DNA of 64,000 nt from Amphiscolops sp. MND2022 (Eukaryota): contig OZ076409.1 of NCBI GenBank assembly GCA_964187785.1, forward strand, positions 80,538,001-80,602,000, read 5' to 3'. Made by a program: the position numbers and the translations under genes. The notes under the pieces are model-generated. The model saw only the letters and a program-made list of their open reading frames with translations. It was not told the DNA's origin and did no database searches. Positions 7,601 to 50,771 of the stretch are shown in pieces (the stretch's first letter is position 1; the number at the start of each line of letters is the position of its first letter).

Positions 7601-7744
7601 TTCTATTTTTGACCAGTTTATTATAAAAGAGTGTGTCTCCACGGTGAGGGGTTGTGTACTCTTCGATAAGAGGCAAAGTGTTTCCTCTTTGGAGAAAAAC
7701 TCTATTAAATGATTTCTTTGGACTGTTCGAAAGTTGTTGTGATT

Positions 7745-12299: not shown

Positions 12300-12500
12300 C
12301 GTTATAGAGTTTAGGAGATATGTATCCCATCATAGGGATGATTTGTCTGGAGTAGTTCAGCGTAGTGTTATTACTCTGGCTGCGTTCGAGGTCTTGTTGA
12401 AATTGGCATAGTTCTCTGAAGGTCTTATAGTTGATAATTGAAGAACTTTCCCCAATGTCTAATAGAAATTTGATTTCTAAGCCACTATCGTTTTGCGAGT
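12300..12500 (-). pseudogene. pol: Gypsy aspartic protease remnant
   Basis: LEIKFLLDIGESSSIIN; the catalytic DTG has decayed to DIG at 12451-12459. Confidence 0.7.
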
Positions 12501-12649
12501 CCCCGGCAGCAAAGTTGTAAAGATCCAGACTAAATTTTAGAGGGGCAGTGCTGCTGTTTCTGTTTTTGGAGGCCTTAGTGGTTTAAAGGGCGAACTTCGC
12601 CTACATAAATCACTGAGTAGTCGGTTTCGAGAAACTGCACTGTGTTAGA

Positions 12650-19900: not shown

Positions 19901-22900
19901 GGGCTACCGTGAACGTTTATTGTTTGGTTTTGGCTTACAACAACGTGTCGTCAGTGTAGGTAATCGCTTGTTTCTTCTTGATTAGGGGTTCGAAGTGAAT
20001 AGTCATCATACGGCTGGAAAAACTTGGCAGTTTTTTCAATCCAAAGAATCCTTCTGTAAATGTATTCTGTTTCCCTCGTACAATGAAGATGGTGAGTTTC
20101 CGAGTAGGCTCGTTTCATGGGACTTCATGGAAGGCGCTAGAGAGATCACTTATTGAGAAGATTTTCCAGTTGATGAGTGTCGTTATGGTTTGTATTGGAT
20201 CCAAAGGCCAGAAGTAGTCCGTCAGGTCTATTACTGAATTTAGATATCTTGCGTCTATGATCAGCTTAACATAGTCGTGGCTTGGTTGTAGGATAATGGA
20301 ATTTACGAATAGTGATCCCATTTCGTCACAATCGCCCATTTCCCAGAGTATGTCTGCATTTTTAAGCTGTGTAGGTAATTTTTCTAGCTTTTATCGTTGT
20401 TGTAGAGGTACTTTGCTGGTCTTTGTCTTTCTAGAATTGCTCCAGGTTCCAGGTGAAAGTTGAATCTATGCCTAGTTCTCCCAACGTCGAATTTGTGTTG
20501 AGAGTATACATCTCTTGCACCCATTAGTAGGTCTATTAAGAGAACAAGTTCATCGTCAGTAAGGTCAGAGTAGCAAAAATCGAATTCTTTGATGTATCAC
20601 ACTAAGTCTTTGTTCTGGTATTGTAGGTAGGACTCGATCAGTCGTTCGTTGTCTCCTTTAGGCCTGAAGTTTTCTAATGCTCGTCGCAAGGTGGTTGACA
20701 GGACTTTGCGTCTCTTGTGAAATCTGTCTCCAGTTCTCCGTGTTTGGGAGTGATCTCCTAGGAAAATTGTTGTGTCTCATTTTCTAGTGCATTTTCGGGG
20801 TCTCTTCTCGTAGTCATAGCATTTACATCTAGTTCATTCCTTGTGTTTGTTTGTAGTTGTATTTCTGAGTAGGCAAATACGTCCTGGATGAGTTGAGTTC
20901 CATTGGAAGTCTTCTAGCTCGGAGGCTTCATGTAACATGGATATCGTCCTGAAACCGTTCATTTTGGCGTGCGCTTTCAGCGTTTCCAGAGGTTAAACTG
21001 GTATTTGTGGGTCAGTTTCGTCTTTGGATTTAGCCAGTAGGGTATGGCCTCTCCTTTATGTGGTTTATATTTGGAGCAATTGTACTTTAGTAGGGGTACG
21101 TTTCTAAGAATTTCTTTAGAAAAGCCTTTTGCTGGTTTTAAATCCGCAGGGACAAAGATGATGATAGGGTCTGGTCTGCTGAGGGTTTTAGTTGAGTTTT
21201 CTCCTTCGATTCTAAGGCAATCGTTCATATCTTGAAAAGGGATCGTAGACTGTAGTAGAAAACAGATGTTGTATTCCTCGCTTTCGTTGAGGATGGCGTG
21301 TGCGAGCTCTGTCGGTTTTCTAATTTGATATTTTGGGATTTCTATGGCTAGGACGTCTATCGTTGAGTAACCAATTGAACCTTTTACTAGGGTGATTGTA
21401 TGGTTTTTCTTGTTTTCCTTTAGAATTGGCAAAGTCTCTTCAAATCTTGTGCAGAGATCTTTTATAAAATTGAGTCCTGTAGAAACTGCTTCAGTTGGGT
21501 AGAAACGTAGATCCGGGAGGAAAGGAATTCTTAGCGTTTTCAGGAGCACATTTATAGCATCTTGTTGGCTTCAGTTCGATGTACATGGAGTGAAAGGTTA
21601 AAATTTGGAGTGTTAAAAACTGGAAATACAAATGGATAAAAATTGTTTAATTGACAACTAGTGTAGCAGAAAGTATTTAGAGGTCTCTTGAGCTCTCTAC
21701 CGGGAAAGTCGAAGTGTTTTTTGTGGATCTGTTCTTCGCAGAAATTCATTCCAAGTAAGTTTTGTGTTTTGAGGTAAGTTATGTTGACCATCCTAGTCGT
21801 TATAGAGTTTAGGAGATATGTATCCCATCATAGGGATGATTTGTCTGGAGTAGTTCAGCGTAGTGTTATTACTCTGGCTGCGTTCGAGGTCTTGTTGAAA
21901 TTGGCATAGTTCTCTGAAGGTCTTATAGTTGATAATTGAAGAACTTTCCCCAATGTCTAATAGAAATTTGATTTCTAAGCCACTATCGTTTTGCGAGTCC
22001 CCGGCAGCAAAGTTGTAAAGATCCAGACTAAATTTTAGAGGGGCAGTGCTGCTGTTTCTGTTTTTGGAGGCCTTAGTGGTTTAAAGGGCGAACTTCGCCT
22101 ACATAAATCACTGAGTAGTCGGTTTCGAGAAACTGCACTGTGTTAGATCTTCCCATGTCATTTGTATCGGGGAACCGTTATTTTTATGTCTGGGTGGGTG
22201 TGTTTTCTTGGGAATCTCTGGTTACCAGAGCCGAATCTTGTACTTATAGGTCTGCGTTCTTGGTTAAAGTTTTTGGGTGGAGGCCAATCATATCGCTTCA
22301 TTCCATGTAGGGTTTGACTGCATAGCTCCAGCCAGTGTGAGTTGGTGTGCCACAGCCATTTGTTTTTGAGTCTCAAAGTTAGGTAGTCTTGGGTGAAATC
22401 CTGAGATATGTCCAGGTCCAGTTCCTTTGTTGCAATCGTTGGTGATTGGTATTCTTCTTTCTGGATTTACTTCGTTCTGAACCTTCTTGACTTCCTCGTC
22501 TCTCATCTTCTTTCTGCACCAGTTAGGCCTATGTCCGTTTTTTCTGCAGTAGTTGCAAAACCGGGTGTCCATCTTTCGTCCGGTAGCAGTTTGGTCAACA
22601 GTTTACTCCATTGTGTTGATTTTGTTAGTCGTCTGTTCTTCAATTTGTAGTTTGATTCCTTTGATGTCGTCTCGCATTTCCTGCATCAGTGGGTCTGCGT
22701 GTGATTCTCCACCAGTGAGGGCGCTAGTTACTTCGTAGGACAGGTCCTTGTTTATTAAAGCTTGAGAGAATTGCTCCCAAGTTGCGTTCGGATGATCGAA
22801 TATATATTCGTGTGCTTTTTCTCTTAGCTTTGGTGGTCAAAGCCCTCTTAGTGAGTAATCGATACATCTTTGACTTCTTTGTCGGTCCTGTGCTATTGTT

Positions 22901-24790
22901 TCTGCGTTTCGGTCGTTTTGTGCTACTTTAGCTAAGTCATTTGGCCATCCTTTCTCGACTACTATCATAATTCTGTGTAGAAAATTCTTTTATTTCTTCT
23001 CCATCCATCTCGTGTGGTGACATGTTCGGCTTCCATTCTCTGTCTGAATTTGTTTCTACCATCTGCAAATTTTGTGACGAACCGTTCTCTGATTTCTTCC
23101 CAAGTGTTACCATCCGTGATGCCTGTTTCGAACCACTCCGCTGCTGGTCTTCTTAGCAGTGTGGCGGGAGAAGATTTTCTCATGAAAGTGTAATCGTCAA
23201 GAGCTACACCGTTCGCTGGGGTATTGCCATGAGAGATTCAAAATTTTTTCTCTATCAGCAGAATGATATGCTCATGATCTTGATCTAGGTATGTTCCAGT
23301 GAATTGGTCTCTGCGGAACTCTGGTATGTTCCAGTGAGGTCTGGATTAGCCAAGTGATTTTGAGCAGTCATTGTGAGCTACTGAAATTATGAGAGGAAGA
23401 AAATGAAGAAAAGAGTAATAAATTAAAGATACGATGACGAACGATACTCCAGGTCTCAGGGAGTGATCACAAAGAACTAACGTAAAAACTTTGCTCTTGC
23501 ACGAGTTCTGAAGATGATAAGTTTTAGGCAGGAGTGGCTTAGCATCTACTCCGTAGTATGCCCTTAACAGAAATAAAAATCGCACCCCTCAAACTAGAAG
23601 TACTATCCCCGGGTTAAAAACTTCATTCCCAAAAGTAAAGGTATACTTACAAGTCCCGCTATTGTAAAGATAGTTGTTGAAAAGGTAGTTCGGTATACAA
23701 ATCCTCCAAATTTACCAAAAAAAACTATGTAGAGTACAGTCAGCCCGGTAGGTAATTTATCCACAGGTTGAGCCTATCCGTAGCTTTTGGAAGAGAGATT
23801 CAACAAACTAATAGAACGAATCACTCTCGTCCTTAGGATTAATTGCGCGGGGCCCAGATCACTATCATGCAAAAACACTCGGGGTATTTTCACTAGAACT
23901 CTAGGATTCCACCCGGTATGCTACATATGTTCCAGGATACCCACTGGGCCCACGGCCTTCAATCAGTTCCGAGAAAACCTAGACGGGCTTTTACTTAATG
24001 TGTGTCCGTCTGGACTCGAGTGAATTTCCCATTGCAGGTTTAAATACAGCGTTAATTCTCAGTTTCACTCTTGTTTAGGAGTGAATGTAATCTCCTAGCC
24101 CTTTCGTGGAAGTCAATTGTCTCTAACAATTGTTTTGGGGATGAGAGGACTAAGTTGAGTAGTGCATAAACTCTCCCGCAAGCTGTTAAGCTGAAGAGAA
24201 TTTGTTGGAGTATAAACTAGTAGTTTTATGAATAATATAAAACAATGAAGCCAATTATTGCAGCAGTGGGAGAAAGGAGAATGTTAGAAATAATATCATG
24301 AGTATTAGGTAGATAACCATAACTTCGGTAGTAGGGATTCTCAGTAACAGATTGCTCATTTACTTCCCTATAAAAAGAGAAAAAGTGCCTCACTGGGCGC
24401 ACCAGTTTGTCGCACGCATAGGGAAATTTGAATTTACTGATTTCTGGTTGTCTTTTATCAAGTGACTGTTTCGTTCCTGTTAGTATTATTCAACTCAGCT
24501 GCTTTTGCCTTTTGCAAAGTGATTCCAGGCGACCGTTCTATCATTGATTAGAAGTGAGGGAGAAAGTCTCAATAGGTTACTCTGAATAATAACAAAAAAA
24601 GTGCCTCGCTTGTACGTGCGAAAAAAAAAGGAAATTGCGTGAGTAAGTGCAAGGCAGTGTATATAAGTGAGCCGTTCGTATACAAAAAAGGCTTAAGAAC
24701 CAAATATGTGGAATAATTACAAAACTGATTTTGGGACAAACAGTTTTTTCTAGACGAAGCAGTAACTATTCTATTCTATTCGTCTACAAT
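16967..24790 (-). mobile_element. Duplicated partial copy of Gypsy element A (IN 17243-18330, RT/RH about 19150-20400, macrodomain 20851-21174, PR about 21950, gag about 22150-23370); lacks accessory region and env
   Basis: Same ORF fragments and same inactivating lesions as 7468-15290, at offset 9498. Confidence 0.92.
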
Positions 24791-34099: not shown

Positions 34100-35300
34100 C
34101 CTTGGTCGAAATCGGTTGTTGAACAAGCTTACATTATTTTGCAATTAGAGGCCGAGTTTCTCTAATTGGCCTTTCCACCTTCTTTAATTCATCTGGTATC
34201 TTCTAGAGAGAACAGCATTGCGCGTTTAACGAAAGCTTCGAACAAATTAGGTTTCAGGAAGAAGAGTTTTCTAAAACTTTTAAAAGTACACTTGAAGGAC
34301 CTTGCGTTACAATTTTTCCACACATTAGACGAGAATACAAGGACAGACTTAGAGCAGTCAACGACTGCTTTGAAAAATGATTTTCAACTCAACCTTGAAA
34401 GAAATACACCAGATCAAATTAGAAAGTATAAAATTCTATCACAAAACAGAATCACGAGAAGAGTTCCAAGTGAAACTGCAAAACTTGGCATTCAAAGCAT
34501 ATCCAAAACCGGTTGATTTACCAGTGGCGCCGGTTGACGAAACGGAGCTGTAGCAAATGATCAGGACCGCTTTGATAGAGAAAAAAGTGAAAATGGAAAC
34601 TGACGGAGTTTCGCGAAAGGCATTTAATTCGTATTTTCAAAAACGCAATGCCAAGTTTGTTTTATTCAATTAAAGATTCTTGAGGAACCGGAAAAAACAA
34701 CAATTCAAGAACTGTGCACGAAAGTGAGACAAAAATTGATATTAGGAGAACTATGTCCTGTTGATGATTGGTCTCGAGAAAGATTGAATGAATGGGTTCC
34801 GAAAATTCAGAAAAAGTTTTATTGGTCCTGACAAAAATGTCTGAGAACCATACAACCCTTGAAAACAGAATCGAAGCAATGACGGAAAAACTGCACTCAC
34901 CGCAACAGAGTTCCAATATGATAACTATAACGATAATCGGGAAAAATGGAGAGGAAATTTCAGAGGTATATCTTACCAGATTCGAGGAAAAAGAGGGTAT
35001 CGCTGTAACCAAGGATACTCAAACAAACAAAAGAACGGATGAAACAATCGAAGGAGATGGCCGTACGGGAGTAACTTCAATGGAGGTAACAATTGTGGTG
35101 GAAATAATTTCAGAGGCAACAGCAGGGAAAATTTCACAAATAACTGAAATAATGGCAATAATGATAGTTTCCTAGGCCAAGGTGGAAATGCCAATATCGG
35201 AACGACACTTACTACAGGAAACTTGGACGGTCATTTTGAATCCACTGAGTTCTCTCAAAAAATTTGTTACAACTGCGGCTGCCGTGAAAAGTGTAAAACT
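34100..35300 (+). pseudogene. gag: Gypsy gag, fragmented
   Basis: LKVHLKDLALQFFHTLDENTRTDLEQSTTALKNDF (retrotransposon gag-like), LEEPEKTTIQELCTKVRQKL, an N/G/R-rich low-complexity stretch, and ICYNCG (broken knuckle). Confidence 0.7.
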
Positions 35301-35639
35301 GTAATTATAATAATAGCTCACTGTGATTGGTTATTAATGCAAGTCGCAAGATCTGGGAACTTGCTTACGGTGATATGTATCGTAATGGCCACTCGCACCA
35401 TTCCGCCAGAAATTGTGAAGCGCGAAAGAAAATGTTGTTCTAGGTGTCGACAAATTTCGTTCAACTCGCAATCAAATAACTAATAAAGCCACACACGTCC
35501 AACAGTCAAGACCATAAAACTAACTATATTCAAGGTAATACGAATGCACCTAATGTTTCTGACTTTTCACAAGAGTCAGTTGAGGAACTAAAACATTTTA
35601 TTACAGATGGAAACATTCCTGATATCAGTGCAATTTTTC

Positions 35640-38280
35640 CACTAGAAGGCGAAAACATTGCAAATACGATTGAAGTTTGGAAACCTACAAAGAAAAGCAC
35701 TCACAGATACTGGAGCATGAGCAAACGCCATGCCGGTGAGTTCTACGAAAAACTGAAAAAATGAATACTCTGATTCAATTCCAGAGTTCCAACAAGCTTC
35801 TTTTCCCATCGTAAAAGTCGCTTCCGGACGCACAGCGAAAGGCTTTACGCACATTGGGGTCAACTTTCAGGTTAATCATCATGATCTCCAGGACACCTCT
35901 CGGATACTTCCTTCGATGAACAGGGTTGTTCTCGGCAACCTTTTGTTCAAAAAGTATAACATAGAAATAAGCCCAGCAGACAATCTTCTAAAGTTACCTG
36001 ATCTGACGTATCAGTTAAACGAACTCAAAATACCCGGGAAGGCTGACGAAAAAATCCGTAAACTCGATATTCAGTATCGATGTCTCAGAAAACATTCCTA
36101 AAACAACAAAACCAGGAAATTATCTACACAAAAAAGAAATTTCCCAAAACACAGGCAAACACAGGCGTTATCGTTCCTCGAGATGATTACAAAAACAGAA
36201 CTGAATTGAAAGTGTCTTTTGCAGTTGTTACAGTAGGAAAAGGCAATATGATGACAATTTTAGCTCTCAATTTGAATGATCATTATGTGACTATACCAAA
36301 AAAGAAACAGCAGATTTTCAGTTCCTTTCGCCAGAAGAAGAGGAGATTTAGGTGCAATTGGTCTGGAATTAATAGCACTCAGCAAACAAAAATGGTGACA
36401 TATTGAAAGAAACATCCAATCTTGCGTGTAGGGAAAAACAGACGAGGAAAACAAGCTACACGACCACCGCCTGATTACGAAAAAAATCTGGTTTCCCACG
36501 CCAGAAACATGTGCCAATGCGGAAGATTTTTCTCCATTGCAGCGGAGCATTTTTGATAAGGTTGCGAACTAGAACATCGAGATTTGCTGGATCCAATGAC
36601 CAATGCAAAAGATATTTTCAATCAATAAAACTGGCTCAAATCATCTTTAACAATGGCGCAAATTTCGCAAATGCACGATCATCTAGTTGAATGTTTCGAT
36701 ATAATTGCGAATTATCGTTTCGACGTCGGATAAAACACGGACTTGAAATTAAAATTGACGCCTGCGCATGACCTACTAGTCTATGTACAAAGTCCGCCAG
36801 CGCCTATTCACCTTCGTGGCGGAATAATGATTCAGTTAGCTCTTATGTAGTGTTATGGAATTGTAACACTTCAACCAAATTCTAAATATAGCAGTCCGAT
36901 ATTTGCTCATAGGGGAACCATCAGCCAAATTGAGAATTATGATCGGTTTGAGACGCGTGAACCACTTACTCAGAAATGATTGCAACAATAATAATAATAT
37001 TCCAGTGTCCAACATGACAGATGTCTTGCATCGCTTTGTAGGCAAAACTTTATTCACGAAAGGAGATTGCTCGCGAGCTTATCATTGCGGGCAAATGGCA
37101 GATCCGTTATCAGTTCAACTTCTGCCATTTACTTTTGCTTTGAGAACGTACGACTACCAAAGATTAGCACAAGTAATAACCAAATGTGTGACAGGGTTCA
37201 GTTCACTTGTTAGATCTTTTCTAGACTCCTGTCTTGCAGTGAAATTATGTACACAATTCATAGACGATATCGGATATGGAGTAGAGACATGTGATACAAA
37301 CATTTAGACGAGTATTTGACTGTTCAGGACTACGATTGACACCACATAAATGACAACTCGGCATGAGCTTAATAAAAGTCCTTGGAAGTACAATAACACC
37401 TGAAGGACTGATACCTGAAACAAAGATTGAGAAATTTCTCTTGAAACTATCTAGCTACCAGCCACAGTCAGACAAGTCAAACGACTAATTGTCTGTATCC
37501 CTATTATTTTGTTGCTTTCTCCCAAATCTAGCGAAAAACTTGAAGCTTTGGTACAAGTTACTCCGCAAGGTCGTTGAATTTACTTTTCAAGATGACCAGT
37601 TGAAAAGTTTTGAAACCTTAAAAAGCAAGACCTTTTGAAGCAACAAAAACAACAGTAAGATTAGCGAACTCAGGCCAACAGCATGTATTTCTTTGCGACG
37701 CCAGTTACTACAGCAATGGATTTATAACGACGACAGAAGATTACTTAGCACAACAAAATGAAACTAAAAACAGGCCTATGCTCCAGTTTTTTTTGGTTCG
37801 CAGCTTCCAATACAAGTCAGCTGAAGGTGTCCACATATTGTAAAAAAATCGGCCCTTTTTTTGCTCTCGAAAAACTTTCAAATTATTTTTGGGGCGCAAA
37901 GAAACCAGTCATTGTTTTGACGGATAACAAGAGTTCACCAAGTTTTTTTCAATCGAATGCTCCTCATTCATCACTTTGAAACTTCATGGATAGAGTACTG
38001 CATATAACATCGTGCTAGCACATAAACCGGGTAAAGCAAATGCAGCGGCTGATTTTTTATCAAGAATGCAAACGGATCCTAGTGAGAGCATCGATCTTCA
38101 GTTTTTTGACTCCATTTCCATGAAACAAATCGAAACAGACATGAAAGCAAATACTCCAGATGCATCGATGTTAATGATCGAAGTGAGCAATTCAAACGGA
38201 ACGGATGAACTAAAGTTTCTCACACCCAAAGACTTGATAGAAAACATACAACCAAATGACGCTCTATCAAATCACTAATA
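35640..38280 (+). pseudogene. pol: Gypsy pol: protease, RT and RNase H fragments
   Basis: KALTDTGA (35706-35717); FTKGDCSRAYHCGQMADPLSVQLLPFTFALRTYDYQRLAQ...CTQFIDD (37257-37268); FLCDASY; YFWGAKKPVIVLTDNKS...LAHKPGKANAAADFLSRMQ. Confidence 0.88.
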
Positions 38281-39034
38281 TGATCGAGCTATTATCTTCA
38301 GCTTGTGATCAAAGTTTAGCGGAATTATACGCTGTGAAAAGAGCAACAGAATTAAATTCGATCCAGGAAAATGAGCTGCTGAATTAATTCCACGTACACA
38401 ATTCTAATGCCGAAGCCTTGGATATATCAAACAGAGGCCCAAATGGCCTTTCTTATTGTTTCTTGACTTGTTTACCGGGAACAAACTGAAATAACGGATC
38501 CGATCCAGGTGCCCAGCAGGAGTTTTCAGCTCGAGGTTGCGACCAACCGGAGAGGTAACATCCGAGACGACGAAAACGATACGATCTGCCGCGAAAACCC
38601 TACGTATACGATTACGCCTAGGCCTAGACAATCAAAATTTTTATACCTACAAAAACAACAAAACAGCAACGCCTTCGTTTTGATAACTTTGATCCTTTCC
38701 GGTAAATTCCAACGAGGAGAGCCCTCGCCGATGCAGGATGTTACGAGTGTTTGAACAAAGAAGGTACTGCACCACAACATTCCGAAGAACAAAAAAGAGA
38801 AATTCTGCGAAACGAAGCGCATACTACGCGTTCAGTTTCACAAATGGGTAGTTCGATCCCCAATATCCACAAACAACCATGAAAACCATATCTGAAAAAC
38901 CATTATCCAAACATTCAAACCGAGGAATACCAAGACCTTTATACGATGTTTATCGAGACAATTTTCAGTTGAATTCGTAGGCCCGTTCAAACGATAGTTT
39001 AACTTTGCCCACGAACATTCCTATCAAACCAAGA

Positions 39035-39420
39035 AGATTATTTGAGAACAAAACACTTATTTTTGCGCACTTTGTTTCTTCGAACTTGTCAATGTCAGTA
39101 GGTTTCGCAACACAGTTTTTTGTTCCCTGAAGTAAAAGACGTTCGTGCAATGCAATCAAAACTACAGCCAGGATCGTTCATTGTTAATTTTTCCAGGAAA
39201 CACAACTTCTGGATCTATATTTTGGTGACGAAAGCTAACCATAGAGTAAAACCGACCTGTTCTACTTTACAAACACGTCTATGTCGCATGATAGAAAATG
39301 GGGTTGGAGAAACCAACTTACTATAGATTAGCTGTGGCCTCGATCAACCGGAAAGGAAAACTGTTTTACTATTGCTCCTTAACCTTTTTAGCAGCAGTGG
39401 AATCCAAGTTAATACTTCTC
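39035..39420 (+). pseudogene. TARG1/OARD1 (Poa1p-like) macrodomain, with one frameshift and one stop
   Basis: RLFENKTLIFAHFVSSNLSMSVGFATQF / FPEVKDVRAMQSKLQPGSFIVNFSRKHNFWIYILVTKANHRVKPTCSTLQTRLCRM..NGV...*ISCGLDQPERKTVLLLLLNLFSSSGIQV. This aligns by eye with GDLF..SLAHCISxDxxMGAGIAxxF...IYYLITK....KPTY..L..SL..M......MPRIGCGLD.L.W..V...I..VF. Confidence 0.8.
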
Positions 39421-40655
39421 TGTGCAAGTTACATTCGAATATGCAAATTGTTGATGCGCTCATCGAAGAACACAAGTCGAATGATGAGGAATCTCGAACG
39501 CTCATATACCACAAGGCAACGGCACGTAAATCATTCTTCAGAGCACGCACAGTGATGTTCGAACCAACTGGTCACCGACTGCAGAAAAAAAAACAAAAAA
39601 CAACTGGAACAAAACTTTTCTCGAAAATGACGAGGCAGGTAGTTCAACACGCTGTACGTCATTTGCGGGGGAATGGTTTACAACCGAATTTAGATGCGCC
39701 CGTTTCGCCTTGCCTTTGAGTTACTGAAGCGGTTTCATTTCAATATTTTTTTCTTTTTCACCATTTTTTCATTTCTATTGAAAAATTTGAAATAATCACC
39801 AACGATGGCGCCGTGCTGAAGGGTCAGCACTACTCGAAAAACTCTACTTCGACAACTAGCTCTCAAGTGAGAGAAAAAATACGGCCATTTTCTTGATTTC
39901 CTACTTACTGTAGCATGAAAGTCGAACGACATTTTGATGCAGAAAAGGAAAAAAACGGTCACAGGACGGGCTTTTGCATTTTTCTTTCCTCTGAAAACAG
40001 TCACACTTGGAGGTACTTTCAAACTTCATTAAAGAAAACACTTCCGTTTTTTTGACGTCCTAGTTCACAATTATGTGAACTATTGTTCGCCTCCACTCAC
40101 GGTTTTGGCAATTTTTTTAGCACTAGATGTGCAACAGCTCATTATGAAAGTGCGTGCTGTGATTCCAACACCAGTAGCTGAGCGACGCAATATTTATACA
40201 AAACAATTTCGATGAGACCAGATGCATCAACAACCTGTTTCGCTAGGCGTTCAAAATATCCGCTTTCCACTTGTCAACTCGGGCTACAATGAGATTGAAA
40301 AACTTTCGAATTTTGTGTCTCTGTTTGGTTGAGGCTTCAACAACAGCTTACTAGAATTAAGCAGACTATTTGCCTGCTTGTTCTTTGTTTTTAAACAACC
40401 ATCTTTGTCGGAAGAGTCGCGTAGCAAAAATTTTTGCATTTGCTTCAGCCCTCGCACTTTTGTCATGTCTCTGCGAAAATTTTCACATCCAGCATCGTAC
40501 TGCAAGCATTCCAAGTGTTGCTGCACAGTTGTGTTCCGATAGGAACATTTCTTAATTGTTTCCAACATCTGCCTATCTGAGCAGTACTCAAACAGATTTT
40601 ACGTTTTTTATTCCATTCCAGTAGAATAATATGAATAATATTATAACACTTGATC

Positions 40656-41932
40656 TCATCGTTTCAAGTCCTCTTCATTTTTACCCTCAAAACCGACAAC
40701 CAGTGCGTGCCCTCCGCTCAATGTTATGACGGTATGAACCCATAATGCAGACTGAATCATTAGTGAAATACAATCAGTAAAGAAAAACTTGACGCTCCGC
40801 CGCAATAGTTTCGACGGTGGTTTTGACAGACAGTCCACAAGAGCTTTTTTCGAAGTGAGAATGGACTCTAAGCGGCGCGATGCTCGTCCTCGTCTTGCAA
40901 TGATCATCAGTTTTCCACCGATTGGAACAACCGTTATACTGTCATCGCACCCTGTTTCAACATGTCCTGCAGTGAGCCAAATTCCAAATGATATAATACC
41001 GTCAAACTTTGTCAGAGTCAAACATTTGAGCATCTCCATGTCAACAAGCCCTTCCAAACTGAAGGAATATGCATTCGAGTTCAAATTCTAAGTGATGTCG
41101 GGTTTTTCAATACAGTTGTATAGCTGCTGTTGGAAATCATGAAGTTCTTTCCAATATTGATGACAAAACGTAGTCTTCTTGTGAGTTAGGTTTCTCACAA
41201 AACAATGAATCAACTCTAAAAAACTGTAGTTTTATTGGATAGGATTTTTCTCGTTCAAGACAGACAGACAAACCCGCCGTCACAACTTGCCCTTCATCGT
41301 ATCGCGATTGACTCCCCGTGTTTTCTATATTGTACCCTTCTGGGTAAAGTTTACAGGCATTCTCAAATCATGTCAGCTAGACTGCATTTTCCGCAGCAAA
41401 ATCATTACGACAGATACTGAACATTTTGAGAGGGAGCTGTTTCTCAATTTTAAGCCAGTGTTAGTCCAAATGCCAAATTGATCTTCAATATCATCAACAA
41501 TTTTTGACATCATCAAGCAGATGCTCATAGTTTTACGCGGAGATTTACTCGAAGACAATTGCGATGATCGAAGAAAATTGAATTCGCCTACTACTACTCC
41601 ACTAAAAACAAAATTGAATCAAATTCATTCTTTACATTAACACTGAGCTCTTCGGTAGAACCGCTTGACGATTGGAGCCTTTTTTCCCGAGCACCAGTAG
41701 CATGACCAGTAATATTGGCAGATGCAACATAATCCAGGTATCGTCTTGTTGTACACGAGCTTCCTGTGGTACACCGATTGTCTGTTGACATGCCTTGATG
41801 ACAACATTGATACATGCCTTTCGGAAACAACAGAGAACTATCTCTCCATTGATGCTCTGGTAAAAGCACATATTTCACAAACGATTTCGTGAAAAACTCG
41901 AACATAAATTCCACATCACGTTCCAAAAGCAC
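40656..41932 (-). pseudogene. Antisense accessory ORF remnants inside element B (41594-41932 Cys-rich; 40656-41558 one frame with 5 internal stops)
   Basis: The frame from 41558 to 40656 stays in register (stops at about 41373, 41325, 41280, 41232, 41088) and includes a 142-codon open stretch. ORF 41594-41932 has YQCCHQGMSTDNRCTTGSSCTTRRY. No family recognised. Confidence 0.4.
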
Positions 41933-42129
41933 ACATCAAACGTCAGGAAATGAAAACTTACAAATCATCTAAGTGTTTTCCCCATTCAGGTTTTTCTCTT
42001 TGTCCCGCCCAAAACAAACGAAAGTCATGAATTTATTACCACGTTCTTTTTGAGTCCTTTCAATCCTCGTAGTGTTAGTCTACCCGAATGCCTGAAAATC
42101 CGTCATAGGTGCCGATCAGGACTCCGGAG

Positions 42130-43160
42130 CTAATCTTGCCAATGGTGTTAATTTCAAACGCGTTCCGAAAATCTTGTTATCTGAGAAGTTTTTAAACGTC
42201 TATTTTCTAGTCACCTTTCCAGAAATTTAGATGAACGTGAGTGCCGAAAAGGTCTTCTACATTACCAAACTTGCCCCCTATGGAGCTCTACAAGCTGGCA
42301 GCGTCATCTTGATTGTTCTTCGATTTTTCAGAAATACGATTCCACCTTCGACATCGTTTGGCGCATTCGTCAAGTTGAGAACGATGCCACACTCGCTGAA
42401 AAACAGCTAGAAGCTCTTCGCATCTTCAGGTCTTCATTCTTGAATACAAAAAACGACGCTGCTCAAGCACGAAGACGGAATCCGAGGGCAACGCCACTCG
42501 CCGTGATGGCGCTAGCGTCTGTGGTACTTTCCGGATCTGGAATCATTTGGCGAATGTGGCCTCCAAGGTCGTTTGGGATCATGCCATGACCGCTCCAAAG
42601 CAAATGCTGAAAATTTTTAAAAGCTTGCAGAATTAAAATAGAGCTTAACACAAGATGATTTCAAGTTACGAAAAGAAGTGAATGAGAAATTGTTTATGGT
42701 TACAGCGGAATTAGACGCCCTAAAGTCCTCTCAAGGAAATGGTGGAAGTCCAAAATCGTAACTGGAAGTTTATCGCGGAACGCTTTGAAGTCTTTCAGCA
42801 TAATATTCACGTATTAAAATATTGTGATCAATTTTTGTTCACCATGCATCAGATTAACCTCAAATATGACACAATTTCCTCCTTTCTCGCTTTAACATTT
42901 GCAAACATCTAAAGCTATCGAGGCGCTTTCCTAACCGACAAAAACAATATGATGGATTCAATTCAGCCTACCTTGAATCAATGTTTGCCGTTGTCATTAG
43001 TCCCCAGAGCAGCACTTCTACTTATACTAGACGCCGTTGCTTTGAGCAATGGCGAAACTCCGACAAGCTTTCACTGGCAATCCCAATGGACAATATTTTT
43101 ATTATGAGTCGCGATTGCTTCGCGACGTTCTAGTTGTTGAACAAGGATCATGCGCATTGC
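42130..43160 (+). pseudogene. env: Envelope-like protein with furin-type site, fusion-peptide-like segment and heptad region (class-I-like); decayed and truncated
   Basis: GVNFKRVPKILLSEKFLNVYFLVTFP...AQARRRNPR|ATPLAVMALASVVLSGSGII (42470-42545), GECGLQGRLGSCHDRSKANAENF, LRKEVNEKLFMVTAELDALK, EVQNRNWKFIAERFEVFQHNIHVLKYCDQ...LPLSLVPR...LSLAIPMDNIF/YYESRLLRDVLVVEQG. Confidence 0.7.
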
Positions 43161-43430
43161 ATTTCTGTTTGCTACAAATGTTTCAGCGTTTATTGTCTCA
43201 CGTGCCATTGCAGTGCACATCCCCCAGCCTGAAAAAATTTCAGAAATTATATGGAAGTTGGAGGCGCCGTACCCAGCTAGTAGTGTACGCCTTTGATCTA
43301 ATTGCTTGGGTCTAATGGAATTAGATCTAACTGTTAGGTCTAACTTTCTGATTTAATTTTATCTAAAATACTTAGGTCTAACCCCTTTATGATCTAATAT
43401 GTTTTCTGAAAGCGAAAATTTAATGTGGGG

Positions 43431-43608
43431 CATATGCGATGTATGCACGCTCGCCCTCACCGTCGCAAAGACCAGCTCCCACTACGATCGCTTCGCGATC
43501 TCCGTTCCCGCTAGGTCTTTGCTCCTGTTCGACCTCGCTTAGCCAGATGGGAATATAAGCGGCCCCAAGGGGCAGCGGGGCACAAGAGGAAATGGAGACA
43601 TATCCGAG
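43431..43608 (-). repeat. GC-rich hairpin module, inverted copy (about 90%) of 44255-44432, embedded in an AT-rich TAGATCT/GATCTAA-repeat tract (about 43290-43760)
   Basis: The reverse complement matches 44255-44432. The ORF track shows the paired translations 43420-43611(-) and 44237-44443(+). Confidence 0.9.
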
Positions 43609-44037
43609 CACGTTTTATACGTTGTATCACTTTTTAGTTTTAGATCCTAATTGATTTTTTTTTCTCAAATTAGATCAACTTAGAAGAGATTTTTAGACCT
43701 GAATAATTAGATCAATTTATTTAGATCTCAGTTTTGCCCCCTCTCTTAGATCTATTTCATTAAACCTGATTCTACGTAGCCCTCGTTACCACAGTGGCAC
43801 GTGTGCGCAACACAGATGTTGGCACCGAGACGCAAACCAATTGAATTTCGAAGTTGTTGATCATCAAGTTTCAGGCCTAGGTTCTTGCAAGGAACGACGT
43901 TCAGCCATTGAGACCCGATTTTACCTTGATGAGCGTGAAACGATCATGATTTCTGTTTGGCCACCCTCTTTTTCAAAGAGATCGTAGCGGCACTAAAAGT
44001 TTGCGAAACCGAGCAAGTAGTATTACCAGCGGTAAAT

Positions 44038-44170
44038 GGTCACTTGGCTTAATGCCATTTGGCTTAAAGTCATTTGGCCTAATACATTTGGTCACTTGGC
44101 TTAATTTTTTTAAGCTAAGTGTTTCGGGTATTGGTCACTTGGCTTAAAGTCATTTGACTTAATACCACTT
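44038..44170. repeat. Short tandem repeat (about 15-16 bp, GGTCACTTGGCTTAA variants)
   Basis: GGTCACTTGGCTTAA, GCCATTTGGCTTAA, GTCATTTGGCCTAA, GGTCACTTGGCTTAA (twice more), GTCATTTGACTTAA. Confidence 0.85.
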
Positions 44171-44173
44171 AGT

Positions 44174-44709
44174 TGAAAACACGTGGCAGATTTTGTCGAA
44201 TTTATCTTTATAACGTAGTCAGCGTATTATTATAACATGTCATATCAAGTACCCCTCGGATATGTCCCCTTTTCCTCTAGTGCCCTGCGGCCCCTTGGGG
44301 CCGCTTATATTCCCATCTTGCTAAGCGAGGTCGAACAAGAGCACAGACCTAGCGGGAACGAAGATCGCGAAGCGATCGTAGTGGGAGCTGGTCTTTGCGA
44401 CGGTGAGGGCGAGCGTGCATACCCTGCATATGGGTGGCTGTAAATACGTCGAATTTTTCTGGTCGAAAGGACCAAGGTCGAATCTTTTGATCGAATTACA
44501 GAGATCGAATGGAATGCGGTCGTCTTTTATCGTATTTGTTGTATGGCTCGGTCGCTTCGCTCCCTTCGCCAAGTAGCAACATTGAGGCATGGCCAAATGG
44601 CACGTCGCTCCGCTTCGATTCGCTCCTGCATTTAGGGCACTAGGGGGTATGTGAACATATCTGAATACGTTATAATAATAATTCCGACAAAATCTGACAC
44701 GTGTTTTCA
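44174..44709. mobile_element. MITE-like element with about 50-bp imperfect terminal inverted repeats; TSD not resolved
   Basis: TGAAAACACGTG[G/T]CAGATTTTGTCG(G)AATT..T..TTATAACGTA[G/T]TCAG at 44174-44222 and inverted at 44662-44709. Confidence 0.7.
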
Positions 44710-44962
44710 TCATAGTGAATTCATTTCGATTTGAAATTTCAGCCAATCAGATTGCAGCATAAAGAAATATTCTGCTGAATGGAACCGAATTTTCATTTTC
44801 TGCTGTATGAGACTTCTGCTGTGAGGGAATTCCTCTGTTTGATTACGTACGCTTCTACCGCCTATACGTTGTTTGAATCGGACAGAGTTAACTACTTCTT
44901 CCGGCATTGTGAAATATCCCAGATGTTGTATTTGCATCGTTACACTGAAATGCGGTTAACAA

Positions 44963-46057
44963 TTGTCAGGCTACCATATCATTATCAGATCTGATTTGAG
45001 CACTTGTGAGAAAACTGCGACAGCTAGCAATGAAAATGTTGCCTTGTTATCCAAAGGAACTCTTGCGAAAAGTTCCGCGCGTAAACCTGAAAAGTTTAAT
45101 GGAAAGTGTAGGCGTTGCGGTAAAAGTGGACATGAACAAGCCACTTGTAGAGTATCCCAGTGTAACTTTTGCAGGCGTTTTGGCCATGAAGAGAATAAAT
45201 GTTTCAAGAAAAACCCTCTTTTGAACCCTAAGTCAAGTGCTGAGACAGGAGAGTCAAACCTAGCTGAGGACTTAGTTTTCTTTTGCGATGGTAGTGAGAC
45301 TGCACTCACTAGCCAAAATTGCGAGGTGAAGGAGCACACTTTGGTCATTGACTCTGGTGCTTCCTCGCATATGTTTTTTGACCGTTCCCTGTTCTTCGAC
45401 TTTAGCGAAGAAACACAACGCAAAGTAAAAAATGCGAATGGGATTTTTTCGCAAGTTGAGGGTGTTGGAAACGTTTCTCTTTTACTTTTGGACAAAGAAG
45501 GGATCGAACGCTGTGTGACAGTTTCCGACTGTCTTTTTCTTCCTGATCATTCTCATAACTTGATCAGCGTTAGCAAGTTGAGACAAAACGGGGCTCAAGT
45601 GAATTTCGGAAAGTCTCTGAGCATTTTTGTCAATGAAAGAGCAACTATTCCTTTTGAAGAGCACGCTAATCTTTACGTTTTGAAAGGAAAGACATTTGAT
45701 TTTTGCTCTTTTTCCGGCGAAAACGAAGAAGCGGTGTTGTGGCATCATCGCCTTGGTCACAACAATTTCAAAAATGTGAAACGTTTGGCTCATCATGTTT
45801 CGGGTTTGAGCTTGAAACACAGTGCTTTTGATAAACTTTGTTGTTGTGAAGTTTGCAAAATTTTAAGTCACGACGGCAACCAGTATCGCGAAAAAAGGAG
45901 AAACGAAAATCTTCGAAAATTGATCTCGTCTTCACTGACATTTTGGGACCGATGCCAACTACTTCGCTTGGTGGCAATCGATACGCTATTTCTTTTACGG
46001 ACAACTACAGCAGGTACTCAGCGGTATATTTCCTCAAATCGAAAGAGGAGTGCCTAG
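44963..46057 (+). CDS. gag-pol: Copia gag C-terminus (two CCHC knuckles), protease and pre-integrase region; homology starts at about 44995
   Basis: CRRCGKSGHEQATC, CNFCRRFGHEENKC, LVIDSGASSHM, LWHHRLGH...CEVC. The integrase continues in another frame after ...TGCAAAATTTTAAG. Confidence 0.9.
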   Translation: MSGYHIIIRSDLSTCEKTATASNENVALLSKGTLAKSSARKPEKFNGKCRRCGKSGHEQATCRVSQCNFCRRFGHEENKCFKKNPLLNPKSSAETGESNLAEDLVFFCDGSETALTSQNCEVKEHTLVIDSGASSHMFFDRSLFFDFSEETQRKVKNANGIFSQVEGVGNVSLLLLDKEGIERCVTVSDCLFLPDHSHNLISVSKLRQNGAQVNFGKSLSIFVNERATIPFEEHANLYVLKGKTFDFCSFSGENEEAVLWHHRLGHNNFKNVKRLAHHVSGLSLKHSAFDKLCCCEVCKILSHDGNQYREKRRNENLRKLISSSLTFWDRCQLLRLVAIDTLFLLRTTTAGTQRYISSNRKRSA

Positions 46058-48301
46058 ATAAATTCAAAGTTTTTTGTGCGCAAGTGGGAACGCCCAGAGC
46101 AATCCGTTCTGATAATGGGAAAGAGTACATTTCCAAGTCTTTTCGAAGTTTTTGTATATCAAACCGAATCAAACGTGAGCATACTGCCCCTTATTCGCCT
46201 CATCAAAATGGTGTGAGCGAACGTCGCTGGCGAACAACAGTTGAAATGGCTCGCTGCATGCTAAAAACAGCAAAACTTGGCAATGAATTCTGGGATCGGG
46301 CCTTACACACTGCTTTTTACATTTCAAACCGTTGCCTCACAGTTAGTTTACCAAAAGGTAAAACGCCCTTCGAAATGTTTTTTGGTAAAAAACCAGATCT
46401 TTCCAACTTGAAAGTTTTTGGATGTACTGCTTTCAAACACATTGAAACGCATCAAGACAAACTTTCCAATAAAGCCACCAAAGAAGTTTTCGTTGGTTGT
46501 TCTGAGGATTCCGAAGCAAAAATTTTGTACAATCCTTATTCTAAAAAGACTTCGTTTTCTCGCAACGTCTCCTTTGATGAGACTTCTTTCGACTTTTTTG
46601 CTGCGCACCCAAGTCAAAACATCCGAGCATTTGTAACCGAAAAACCGGCACCGAAACAAGTTTTGACTGAAACACAGAAACATTTTTGCGAAAAGTCTTC
46701 AGTTCCTATTTTACCGACTGAAACATTGAATGATTTCAGGCGTTTTGGCCATGAAGAGAATAAATGTTTCAAGAAAAACCCTCTTTTGAACCCTAAGTCA
46801 AGTGCTGAGACAGGAGAGTCAAACCTAGCTGAGGACTTAGTTTTCTTTTGCGATGGTAGTGAGACTGCACTCACTAGCCAAAATTGCGAGGTGAAGGAGC
46901 ACACTTTGGTCATTGACTCTGGTGCTTCCTCGCATATGTTTTTTGACCGTTCCCTGTTCTTCGACTTTAGCGAAGAAACACAACGCAAAGTAAAAAATGC
47001 GAATGGGATTTTTTCGCAAGTTGAGGGTGTTGGAAACGTTTCTCTTTTACTTTTGGACAAAGAAGGGATCGAACGCTGTGTGACAGTTTCCGACTGTCTT
47101 TTTCTTCCTGATCATTCTCATAACTTGATCAGCGTTAGCAAGTTGAGACAAAACGGGGCTCAAGTGAATTTCGGAAAGTCTCTGAGCATTTTTGTCAATG
47201 AAAGAGCAACTATTCCTTTTGAAGAGCACGCTAATCTTTACGTTTTGAAAGGAAAGACATTTGATTTTTGCTCTTTTTCCGGCGAAAACGAAGAAGCGGT
47301 GTTGTGGCATCATCGCCTTGGTCACAACAATTTCAAAAATGTGAAACGTTTGGCTCATCATGTTTCGGGTTTGAGTTTGAAACACAGTGCTTTTGATAAA
47401 CTTTGTTGTTGTGAAGTTTGCAAAATTTTAAGTCACGACGGCAACCAGTATCGCGAAAAAAGGAGAAACGAAAATCTTCGAAACTTGATCTCGTCTTCAC
47501 TGACATTTTGGGACCGATGCCAACTACTTCGCTTGGTGGCAATCGATACGCTATTTCTTTCACGGACAGCTACAGCAGGTACTCAGCGGTATATTTCCTC
47601 AAATCGAAAGAGGAGTGCCTAGATAAATTCAAAGTTTTTTGTGCGCAAGTGGGAACGCCCAGAGCAATCCGTTCTGATAATGGGAAAGAGTACATTTCCA
47701 AGTCTTTTCGAAGTTTTTGTATATCAAACCGAATCAAACGTGAGCATACTGCCCCTTATTCGCCTCATCAAAATGGTGTGAGCGAACGTCGCTGGCGAAC
47801 AACAGTTGAAATGGCTCGCTGCATGCTAAAAACAGCAAAACTTGGCAATGAATTCTGGGATCGGGCCTTACACACTGCTTTTTACATTTCAAACCGTTGC
47901 CTCACAGTTAGTTTACCAAAAGGTAAAACGCCCTTCGAAATGTTTTTTGGTAAAAAACCCGATCTTTCCAAATTGAAAGTTTTTGGATGTACTGCTTTCA
48001 AACACATTGAAACGCATCAAGACAAACTTTCCAATAAAGCCACCAAAGAAGTTTTCGTTGGTTGTTCTGAGGATTCCGAAGCAAAAATTTTGTACAATCC
48101 TTATTCTAAAAAGACTTCGTTTTCTCGCAACGTCTCTTTTGATGAGACTTCTTTCGACTTTTTTGCTGCGCACCCAAGTCAAAACATCCGAGCATTTGTA
48201 ACCGAAAAACCGGCACCGAAACAAGTTTTGACTGAAACACAGAAACATTTTTGCGAAAAGTCTTCAGTTCCTATTTTACCGACTGAAACATTGAATGATT
48301 T
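45172..48301. repeat. Internal tandem duplication, 2 x 1,565 bp (45172-46736 / 46737-48301)
   Basis: Junction TGAATGATTT|CAGGCGTTTTGG at 46736/46737; ORF offsets of 1565 (45853/47418); 7 substitutions counted between the copies. Confidence 0.97.
45853..47622 (+). CDS. Chimeric ORF created by the duplication: integrase fused in frame back to gag knuckle and protease
   Basis: IN core (FTD, SDNG, VSER) runs into ETLNDF|RRFGHEENKC...IDSGAS...LWHHRLGH. Confidence 0.85.
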   Translation: MQNFKSRRQPVSRKKEKRKSSKIDLVFTDILGPMPTTSLGGNRYAISFTDNYSRYSAVYFLKSKEECLDKFKVFCAQVGTPRAIRSDNGKEYISKSFRSFCISNRIKREHTAPYSPHQNGVSERRWRTTVEMARCMLKTAKLGNEFWDRALHTAFYISNRCLTVSLPKGKTPFEMFFGKKPDLSNLKVFGCTAFKHIETHQDKLSNKATKEVFVGCSEDSEAKILYNPYSKKTSFSRNVSFDETSFDFFAAHPSQNIRAFVTEKPAPKQVLTETQKHFCEKSSVPILPTETLNDFRRFGHEENKCFKKNPLLNPKSSAETGESNLAEDLVFFCDGSETALTSQNCEVKEHTLVIDSGASSHMFFDRSLFFDFSEETQRKVKNANGIFSQVEGVGNVSLLLLDKEGIERCVTVSDCLFLPDHSHNLISVSKLRQNGAQVNFGKSLSIFVNERATIPFEEHANLYVLKGKTFDFCSFSGENEEAVLWHHRLGHNNFKNVKRLAHHVSGLSLKHSAFDKLCCCEVCKILSHDGNQYREKRRNENLRNLISSSLTFWDRCQLLRLVAIDTLFLSRTATAGTQRYISSNRKRSA

Positions 48302-49946
48302 CGAAACTGAAACAATTCCTTTCCCCGTTGATGTTGTTTCATCTGAAAACAATGATGCCAATGAAAGTAGTGCTTTTTTGCGGTCTCGAAGTGGGAGAGT
48401 TATCAAACCGCCTGCGTATCCAGACGATGCGCTTATTGAGAACAAAACCTGGGTGCTTTCTCCGCTTCCCCCGGGCCGAAAAGCAATTGGAAGCCGGTGG
48501 GTTTTCAAAATTAAGCGACACGACGACGGAACTATTGAAAAATTCAAAGCTCGTTTCGTAGCCCAAGGGTTTTCGCAAGTTTTTGGGAACGATTACGATG
48601 AAACTTTTGCGCCTACTGCCAAACTTTGTACCTTGAGGATTTGTTTTGCGCTCGCTGCTTCTTGGTCGACTTTTGTTTTTCAGTTAGACGTCCGTTCAGC
48701 CTTCCTCAATGCGAACTTGAGTCATGAAATTTTTATAGAACAACTAAAAGGCTTCGCGCAAGCGGTGGCTAATGGTGAAACACTTTATTGCAAGCTTCAA
48801 AAATGCCTTTATGGTTTAAAGCAAGCAGGGAGGGAATGGAACAAAACTTTAACCCAGTGGTTTTTGAAGAACGAATTTGTACAGTCTGCCGAGGATCATT
48901 GTCTTTTTCGTTGCGATGGGACTAATGGTTCCCAACTTTTTGTACTAGTTTGGGTCGACGACATTTTGTACTCTTCAAACAACGACAAAATGCTGCATGA
49001 TTTCAAGGCGAAACTCAGCGATGCATTCAGCATCGATGATCGTGGGAAAATGACTTGGTTTTTGGGATGCAATGTTGAACAGTCACGCAGTCGCATTTCT
49101 CTTAGTCAGCGGTCATATATAAAGGACATTTTGCGCAAAAGTCATATGTCTGATTGTAAACCAGTCAGTACTCCAGCTATTCCCCATACGAAACAGTCAA
49201 AATCGGACTGCCCTATCGAAGGTAGTGAAAAGTCACTTGATATTTGCGAACAGAAACAATATCGTAGCTTAGTTGGAAACTTAATGTATTTGTCCAATGT
49301 TAGTCGCCCCGATATTTGCTTTGCTGTCTATAACTTAGCACAATTCGTGTCAAATCCTGGTAAAGCCCATTGGTGTGCATTGAAACACCTTCTCCGTTTT
49401 CTCAAGGGCACCGAGTCTCTATCTCTTGTGTATAACCGCTCTGAGAATCTCGAACTTTTTGGTTTTTCGGATTCCGATTGGGCCACCGACAAGGACGATT
49501 GCAAGTCAACTTTGGGTTTTTGCTTCGAACTAAGTCGTTCTGGTAGTGTTGTCTCTTGGGCGTCCAAAAAGCAAGGGTGTGTGGCACTTAGCTCTTGTGA
49601 AGCCGAGTATGTTTCGTTGGCTTTGGCTGCACAGGAAGCAGTCTATTTGCAAGGCTTGCTCACATTCTTCTGCTTGATGACGGTGAACACGCCTGTTCTG
49701 TTGTGTGGTGACAATCAAGGGGCACTCGCACTGGCCAGCAACCCTGTCGCCCACAAACGTGCTAAACACATAGAAACCCGACACCACTTCATCCGTCAAC
49801 TGGTTGAGGACAAACGCATTCAACTGTCTTATGTACCCACAAAAAACAACTTGGCTGATATCTTCACCAAGAACCTACCCAAGCCTGCCTTCAATGAGCT
49901 CTCATCGCAACTCTTCGTCATTCAGCCACCCCGATCAACAACTTAA
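47418..49946 (+). CDS. pol: Copia pol: integrase - RT - RNase H, 842 aa open
   Basis: LVFTDILGP, IRSDNGKEY, QNGVSERRWRT; SRWVFKIK, KARFVAQGFSQ, LDVRSAFLNA, LYGLKQAGREW, WVDD (48951-48962); GFSDSDWA, SCEAEY, GDNQGAL, KHIETRHHFIR, LADIFTK. Confidence 0.97.
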   Translation: MQNFKSRRQPVSRKKEKRKSSKLDLVFTDILGPMPTTSLGGNRYAISFTDSYSRYSAVYFLKSKEECLDKFKVFCAQVGTPRAIRSDNGKEYISKSFRSFCISNRIKREHTAPYSPHQNGVSERRWRTTVEMARCMLKTAKLGNEFWDRALHTAFYISNRCLTVSLPKGKTPFEMFFGKKPDLSKLKVFGCTAFKHIETHQDKLSNKATKEVFVGCSEDSEAKILYNPYSKKTSFSRNVSFDETSFDFFAAHPSQNIRAFVTEKPAPKQVLTETQKHFCEKSSVPILPTETLNDFETETIPFPVDVVSSENNDANESSAFLRSRSGRVIKPPAYPDDALIENKTWVLSPLPPGRKAIGSRWVFKIKRHDDGTIEKFKARFVAQGFSQVFGNDYDETFAPTAKLCTLRICFALAASWSTFVFQLDVRSAFLNANLSHEIFIEQLKGFAQAVANGETLYCKLQKCLYGLKQAGREWNKTLTQWFLKNEFVQSAEDHCLFRCDGTNGSQLFVLVWVDDILYSSNNDKMLHDFKAKLSDAFSIDDRGKMTWFLGCNVEQSRSRISLSQRSYIKDILRKSHMSDCKPVSTPAIPHTKQSKSDCPIEGSEKSLDICEQKQYRSLVGNLMYLSNVSRPDICFAVYNLAQFVSNPGKAHWCALKHLLRFLKGTESLSLVYNRSENLELFGFSDSDWATDKDDCKSTLGFCFELSRSGSVVSWASKKQGCVALSSCEAEYVSLALAAQEAVYLQGLLTFFCLMTVNTPVLLCGDNQGALALASNPVAHKRAKHIETRHHFIRQLVEDKRIQLSYVPTKNNLADIFTKNLPKPAFNELSSQLFVIQPPRSTT

Positions 49947-50137
49947 CCCTTGCCTCCCTCACAACTCAATTATTTTAAATTACTCATTTTTGTGTTTATG
50001 TTATCACTGGGACTATGACGACTTTCAGCTTCTCTTCAACTGATGGATAGAGCCCTCTCAACCGCTGCCTTGACATGACAGATGGTCAAGCACTGTGGTT
50101 CGCCATCATCAAACAACAACCCTCGGAGTCTCTCATC

Positions 50138-50342
50138 GAGCGGGGGTGTTAGAGATCGATGAAGGTCAAAGGACCATTAAAGGTCAACCATCTCAGACTA
50201 TACCAGACTGAACTAATTTAGTATATTATTGTTGTTTGTAAACATGTACCTGTTATTTTATCTTCACTTGACTGAATCACTTTACCAACTCACAACACAA
50301 AATAAAGTATTGACAGTAACTACTCTTCACCAATCTTCCGAC
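50138..50342 (+). repeat. Copia PPT (50138-50146) and 3' LTR (from 50147; end at about 50342 approximate)
   Basis: GAGCGGGGG|TGTTAGAG...; AATAAA at about 50311; candidate CA end at CTTCCGACA. Confidence 0.6.
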
Positions 50343-50771
50343 AACCCAGCTACGACCAGAAGGAGCTCAGGCCCTAATACAGACATTAACGTGAACGTCA
50401 AACTTCCGGAACCTCTCCAAGAACCTTTGGAGTGAATTCCCAGAACTCGATGAAATGCCCTACTACTCTACTAAGACCGAAGCAGGAGTAGCAATGTTGA
50501 AAGTTCGTCAAACGCTCCTCGCTAGTCCATAAATTCGTGATCCCTGAAAACTCTTTGAAATCGTTCGACATATCACTACTGTTTTTGTTTTTCTGTTAAA
50601 AAGTTATTGACTCACGGTAGAAACTTCATTTTACCAAAAGCTGATGCAGTTGTAGCTTTAAAAAATTCTTTATCAGAACTTTTGTTATGAATTTTGAACA
50701 TTTCCCCTCTGTTACGAACATTTCCCCTCTGTTACAATCGTTTGTGTATTTTCTACAAAATGTTTTGAAAC

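Follow-up and report, generated by a model that had tools for sequence, protein, structure and literature searches.

Gypsy retroelements of this genome carry a macrodomain of the TARG1/OARD1 subclass as an in-frame part of their polyproteins, and we put at about 0.5 the probability that this domain travels in the particle and, while dispensable, erases host PARP marks, most likely on element RNA. Decayed copies lie in two elements of the window, the whole stretch of 64,000 nucleotides analysed here. Among RNA viruses and phages, the use of ADP-ribose erasers against host defences is well established. Activity of the element domains would imply that PARPs act on retrotransposons in invertebrates, and would give the newly reported ADP-ribosylation of RNA bases, which TARG1 reverses, a biological setting.

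Decayed copies in the window

The first copy lies near the C-terminus of a broken Pol. Every motif that a sequence-only reading had named is present on the plus strand, spread over two frames with one stop: AHFVS at 39065, SMSVGFA at 39089, IYILVTK at 39213-39233, KPT at 39249, ISCGLD at 39327-39344 and GIQV at 39399. The single frameshift and single stop that it had counted were both found, together with a 4-codon deletion relative to the sisters that it had overlooked. Read as 130 residues with X at both breaks, the domain has human TARG1/C6orf130 as its sole match among 177,635 PDB sequences (5 hits, E 3-4e-8). A Pfam scan of this broken copy gave no Macro match; the macrodomain of an intact sister scores 23.3 bits, above the Macro cut-off of 22. 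A profile built from 11 intact domains likewise points to human TARG1 (E 6e-39), so that the TARG1-type identity first proposed is borne out. The DarG antitoxin (PDB 5M31, 5M3I), whose macrodomain has a related fold and takes ADP-ribose off DNA bases, is matched far more weakly (E 3e-10).

The proposed catalytic lysine and aspartate align with Lys84 and Asp125 of human TARG1. The wider claim that the catalytic motifs are retained stands for these two residues only: the TARG1 pattern TKx(30,35)Px[IL]GxGxD (pattern and residue roles as excerpted from PMC6397177) is not found in the window copy, where the stop falls inside the motif, and the Cys33 and Gly121 positions are altered. Amino-acid identity to a sister is 57-70% for the macrodomain and 59.5% for the neighbouring RT, an equal degree of decay. 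Since the domain has decayed as far as the RT and fails the pattern, we regard this copy as a dead fossil, whose two surviving residues carry little weight by themselves.

The surrounding element is a relic of what we call lineage A. Its DNA is 76-85% identical to that of an intact sister, about 20% diverged from the sisters overall, and carries 28 non-triplet indels in ~4.1 kb of aligned pol; a search of the window copy for LTRs found none. In the sister, 437-bp LTRs of identical sequence enclose gag, a Pol of 1,925 residues, an antisense ORF and an env-like ORF of 783 residues, and its Pol is ordered by Pfam as protease, dUTPase-like region, RT, RNase H, integrase and Macro (1744-1847). The Ty3/Gypsy layout (LTR-gag-pol-LTR, PR-RT-RH-IN) is thus complete in the sister, and the window copy is without its integrase.

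The sister and the mapped env relic also confirm that the element is env-bearing. Insertions separate the relic into pieces at 42099-43284, 43945-44034, 44882-45046 and 50385-50580; one of them, at about 45015-50379, is Copia-like, has long open frames and contains an internal duplication of 1,565 bp. A hydrophobic start and a basic cleavage-like site can be read in the lineage A env sequence, and a homolog matches Baculo_F below the cut-off. An alignment-based model of low confidence (pLDDT 49) resembled baculovirus F (E 8e-11) and pneumo/paramyxovirus F (RSV F, E 6e-4); a single-sequence fold was unusable (pLDDT 35), and the env profile gave spike heptad matches only among PDB sequences (E 0.03-0.3).

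Between pol and env, lineage A elements hold an antisense gene for a JmjC-like oxygenase with its metal ligands kept. The family alignment has the H-x-E/D...H motif, the Atlas assigns the ORF to JmjC clusters at 0.96, one relative passes the Pfam JmjC cut-off, and a profile gave weak KDM7-type matches (best E 0.015). Further along the window, a frame of 240 residues stands open at 58515-59237 (plus strand) with no Pfam match.

The second element of the window, of lineage B, carries the module at a different position, and its env is unrelated to that of the first. To this extent the sequence-only reading of two env-bearing elements, each with the domain, was right; its two catalytically intact cases are not there. 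In the nearest intact family of the second element, a high-copy one with a Pol of 1,854 residues, the macrodomain keeps the lysine; its GxGxD loop has been replaced, and the positions of Gly123 and Asp125 are both Glu, so that the second element is no catalytically intact case. The element and an array of 47-bp repeats are included in a near-identical 9.5-kb tandem duplication (window about 7468-26030), which could be a recent event or an assembly artefact.

Coordinates of the features discussed (window positions unless a locus is given)
Feature	Position	Strand	Basis or remark
Broken TARG1/OARD1-like macrodomain near Pol C-terminus	39035..39427	+	Sequence reading, PDB match, sister alignment
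Lys84-equivalent codon	39231-39233	+	
Asp125-equivalent codon	39342-39344	+	
Frameshift in T-run	about 39113-39125	+	
Stop in macrodomain	39324-39326	+	
gag relic, lineage A	34214..35431	+	tblastn with intact sister's gag; Pfam of that sister
pol relic (protease, dUTPase-like region, RT, RNase H)	35450..38435	+	Many frameshifts and stops
Deletion junction in pol	38435..38479	+	~1.6 kb gone, the entire integrase (sister residues about 1012-1546)
Pol C-terminal part	38470..39530	+	Low-complexity linker, macrodomain, short tail
Relic of antisense JmjC-like gene	40419..41126	-	H-x-E ... H metal motif readable
env-like relic, in pieces	42099..50580	+	Class I, F-type fusion-protein-like
Second Gypsy relic (lineage B), gag and pol	7374..13874	-	
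Broken macrodomain of second element	11330..11694	-	Approximate ends; between dUTPase-like region and RT
Tandem duplicate of second element	17123..23327	-	Offset 9498
env relic of second element	3926..4644	-	Monjiviricetes (chuvirus-type) fusion family
JmjC-like gene copies in lineage A loci	L028:5784-6929; L032:9130-9999; L041:5371-6441; L043:5460-6533		
Host helicase-PARP open frames	L061:2032-7974; L062:2745-8417; L063:1805-8002; L064:1252-7539; L066:2837-8323; L067:1761-7397		

Intact domains, their positions and their origin

The genome was searched with the window macrodomain (150 scored of 495 candidates) and with an intact domain (150 scored of 1,549 candidates). The survey of macrodomain-bearing LTR elements that had been suggested yielded three Gypsy lineages and four domain positions. 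In lineage A the macrodomain follows the integrase and closes Pol; in lineage B, with its chuvirus-type env, it lies between the dUTPase-like region and RT; in lineage C it lies between RNase H and integrase. RT identity between the three lineages is 25-33%, and LTR pairs are 99.2-100% identical at 16 of the 18 loci examined. The fourth position, after the protease, occurs in a Gag-PR-macro frame of 834-845 residues. The element concerned is young, multi-copy, non-autonomous and about 8.5 kb long (L049:3847 to L050:2520 in G000 C1, and four more); its 1.9-kb LTRs are 99.2-99.6% identical, and RT, RNase H and integrase are absent in all five copies examined. Two further loci fetched alongside these copies proved to be ordinary lineage C elements.

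Other captured genes neighbour the macrodomain, namely JmjC, dUTPase-like, TRAF/MATH and DnaJ. The TRAF/MATH-domain ORF follows the chuvirus-type env of lineage B (L030:8384-9535), and the DnaJ-domain ORF follows env in lineage C (L047:1814-2839).

The element domains belong to the same macrodomain subclass as human TARG1/OARD1/C6orf130 (PDB 4J5Q, 4J5R, 2EEE), which differs from them in being a free cellular protein and not part of a retroelement polyprotein. Most intact element domains match His32-Cys33-Ser35, Thr83-Lys84 and Gly121-x-Gly123-x-Asp125 of TARG1, and 15 of 17 fetched domains have the full pattern with Lys84 and Asp125. Lys84 is found in 69 and Asp125 in 66 of 71 domains, counts that are biased upward because an active-type profile had been used to retrieve the set.

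A family survey anchored on the integrase C-terminus, and so independent of the macrodomain, found the domain in 28 of the 30 best loci, the two misses being an assembly gap and a truncation. Fifteen of these loci have the catalytic pattern, 11 a dead pocket, one Asn for Asp and one a frameshift. Ten of the 11 nearest sisters carry the macrodomain (the other is interrupted by an assembly gap), and in sister copies it is an in-frame part of Pol, which refutes a separate insertion absent from them; eight have the TARG1 pattern, and the remaining three show the gap, a frameshift and Asn for Asp. More distant integrase relatives, 20 lower-ranked loci hand-picked out of 120, divide into four with a macrodomain and 16 without; about ten of the latter have Pol tails that end without the domain (roughly three subfamilies), and the rest break early. 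Since 28 of the 30 best loci carry the macrodomain and several relatives do not, it is an integral yet dispensable part of lineage A.

The arrangement of a Gypsy polyprotein with a macrodomain is found beyond this genome. Gypsy proteins with the same domain occur in two sawflies and in further database records: RefSeq polyproteins of Athalia rosae (XP_048515211.1) and of Neodiprion virginianus are ordered RT-RNase H-macrodomain(-integrase zinc finger). The first Athalia domain has the TARG1 motifs, and the sawfly proteins are annotated only as uncharacterized. A homolog search with the whole Pol returned, over the macro region, three unrelated proteins only.

Macro-domain ORFs are recorded in fish epsilon-like endogenous retroviruses (Basta et al. 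2009, as cited in excerpts of PMC4977317). These are likewise env-bearing LTR retroelements; there, as far as those excerpts describe them, the domain occupies additional ORFs in Retroviridae, whereas here a TARG1-type domain stands inside Ty3/Gypsy Gag-Pol frames at four positions. We found no description of a TARG1-type domain in Ty3/Gypsy elements in the open-access literature; subscription papers, Repbase notes or supplements may mention one.

To follow the origin of the domain, two trees were built with IQ-TREE from subsets (55 and 41 rows) of 297 domains, dead-pocket versions excluded. Lineages A, B and C each form one group in both trees, the A and B domains group together (support 94/87 and 86/65), and a single clade of all three is not rejected (p-AU 0.73). 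These results lend no support to the independent, recurrent capture that had been inferred from the two window elements: recurrence is established for the position of the domain and not for its capture. The host has a canonical TARG1 of its own (L137, E 1e-41 to TARG1). Recent capture from this gene finds no support, as the element domains group apart from the host copy in trees whose backbone is without resolution. Fusions of DNA ligase III with a macrodomain were rejected as donors because they form their own group; at three host ligase loci no macrodomain was found within the 3-kb stretches examined. In the fusion proteins (P0108, P0110 and P0111, one cluster including Oithona nana), the TARG1-type macrodomain lies between the ligase core and BRCT.

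Selection and dead-pocket domains

By dN/dS, the macrodomain is under purifying selection: the ratio is 0.14-0.24 in six of six pairs (Fisher p <= 6e-5), and 0.23-0.75 in the adjoining linker. Constraint on RT is far stronger (0.01-0.06 in most unsaturated pairs), and in the window's own subfamily the macrodomain exceeds the linker in constraint only marginally (0.22 vs 0.25). RT and macrodomain divergence disagree in some pairs (for example, RT dS 0.18 and macrodomain dS 0.84), which suggests that modules have been swapped between subfamilies.

Dead-pocket macrodomains persist in frame in intact young elements of lineages A and B. Examples in intact Pol are found at L041/L042, L055/L056, L162:2353-7914 and L110. 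Glu replaces Gly123 in two lineage A families that have also lost Lys84 and Asp125. A dead-pocket pair has a dN/dS as low as active ones (0.16, with synonymous sites near saturation), so that constraint on the fold is no proof that catalysis is selected. That these domains persist in frame speaks most strongly against an exclusively catalytic reading, which is weakened further by their share of the integrase-anchored loci.

The fold could instead serve in the particle as an RNA- or protein-binding module or a decoy, with catalysis optional. The Glu at Gly123, shared by dead-pocket versions of lineages A and B in frame in young elements, fits such a role: excerpts of PMC5928194 describe a G123E mutant of human TARG1 that has lost both catalysis and the binding of ADP-ribose, yet keeps its RNA binding and gains stability. 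On the other side, all three lineages and the RT-less element too preserve the catalytic residues, and the dead-pocket domains of lineage A have a net charge of +1, active ones +8 to +15, the opposite of what specialisation for RNA binding would produce. We consider a non-catalytic function unlikely as the general explanation. The idea that element domains are set apart by a basic surface for docking RNA was rejected; their median net charge of +6 shows no clear difference from the +5 of non-element ones.

For comparison, the genome offers a natural set: families with an active domain, with a dead pocket or with no domain, a carrier that lacks RT, a host TARG1 and candidate writer PARPs.

Possible counter-defence and host ADP-ribosylation

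The intact element domains are very probably ADP-ribose hydrolases, a prediction from their sequences, and would act by the lysyl-ADPr route of Lys84 and Asp125. In the eraser reading, the macrodomain would be packaged with Gag-Pol and carried along with the element RNA, and once packaged would strip host PARP marks from element RNA, cDNA or proteins. Packaging is suggested by the invariable location of the domain in a Gag- or Pol-frame polyprotein. We favour RNA as the substrate for two reasons: an element without RT and integrase keeps the domain, and human TARG1 alone among the tested hydrolases clears base-linked ADP-ribose from RNA. Excerpts of the relevant preprint (bioRxiv 10.64898/2026.03.31.715305) report that TARG1 depends on Lys84 and Asp125 to remove ADP-ribose from uracil N3 and guanine N1 of RNA, and that ARH3, MACROD2 and PARG do not remove such base-linked marks.

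A role in integration would put the same chemistry elsewhere: the domain would clear PARP1/2-type ADP-ribose from DNA ends or insertion-site chromatin, or tether integrase to ADP-ribosylated chromatin. In chromoviruses, a chromodomain tethers integrase to chromatin. The macrodomain follows integrase in lineage A and just precedes it in lineage C, animal DNA ligase III proteins have the same domain type, and TARG1-type enzymes act at nucleic-acid ends and DNA damage (excerpts of PMC8120803 and PMC4695847). In lineage B, however, the macrodomain is far from integrase, and several integrase relatives are without it; its retention, intact, in a multi-copy element lacking both RT and integrase argues against tethering as a general role. 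We judge an integration role rather unlikely.

That the domain is a captured passenger of little effect, which persists only because selection removes polyproteins with a broken frame or a misfolded part, is improbable: its loss or degradation in several subfamilies and its weak constraint relative to RT would fit, yet one stop could remove the C-terminal domain, which persists with fixed pocket residues across subfamilies whose synonymous sites are saturated, and it is kept in an element that has shed RT, integrase and env.

The particle-borne eraser has counterparts in the viral MacroD-type macrodomains of coronaviruses (Mac1) and alphaviruses (nsP3), polyprotein-borne erasers opposing host PARPs. 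The working model is shared; subclass and chemistry differ, and the anti-PARP role has been tested for the viral domains and is predicted here. Counter-defence against host ADP-ribosylation, as the sequence-only reading had proposed, is plausible, with circumstantial support from the PARP repertoire of the host.

That repertoire comprises 32 PARP-domain matches, and may be ordinary for an invertebrate. Fourteen places were fetched and 13 frames scanned, of which six are SF1 helicase-PARP fusions (four with a weak ZNFX1-domain match), five are WWE- or CCCH-linked PARP12/ZAP-like proteins, one is tankyrase-like and one joins ubiquitin to PARP. His-Tyr(-Glu), which we take to be the PARP motif, is readable in most of them. 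ZNFX1 and ZAP have antiviral roles, and the six fusions are candidate RNA-sensing ADP-ribosyltransferases. They have 1,829-2,096 residues, a UPF1/ZNFX1-like SF1 helicase and one or two C-terminal PARP domains, and are mutually 31-84% identical. A search for DarT (PF14487) gave no match in this genome, and none in the control genomes either.

A more elaborate scenario is speculative and doubtful as a whole. A host defence directed at RNA, in which helicase-PARP fusions and ZAP-like PARPs tag element RNA, would be answered by a TARG1-type eraser traded between distant Gypsy lineages, supplied in trans by the Gag-protease-macrodomain element that lacks RT, and repeatedly converted into a decoy with a dead pocket; the JmjC gene would add another eraser, directed at methyl marks.

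Finally, one host protein (L074:3468-4526) joins tandem ubiquitin-like domains to an ADP-ribosyltransferase domain.
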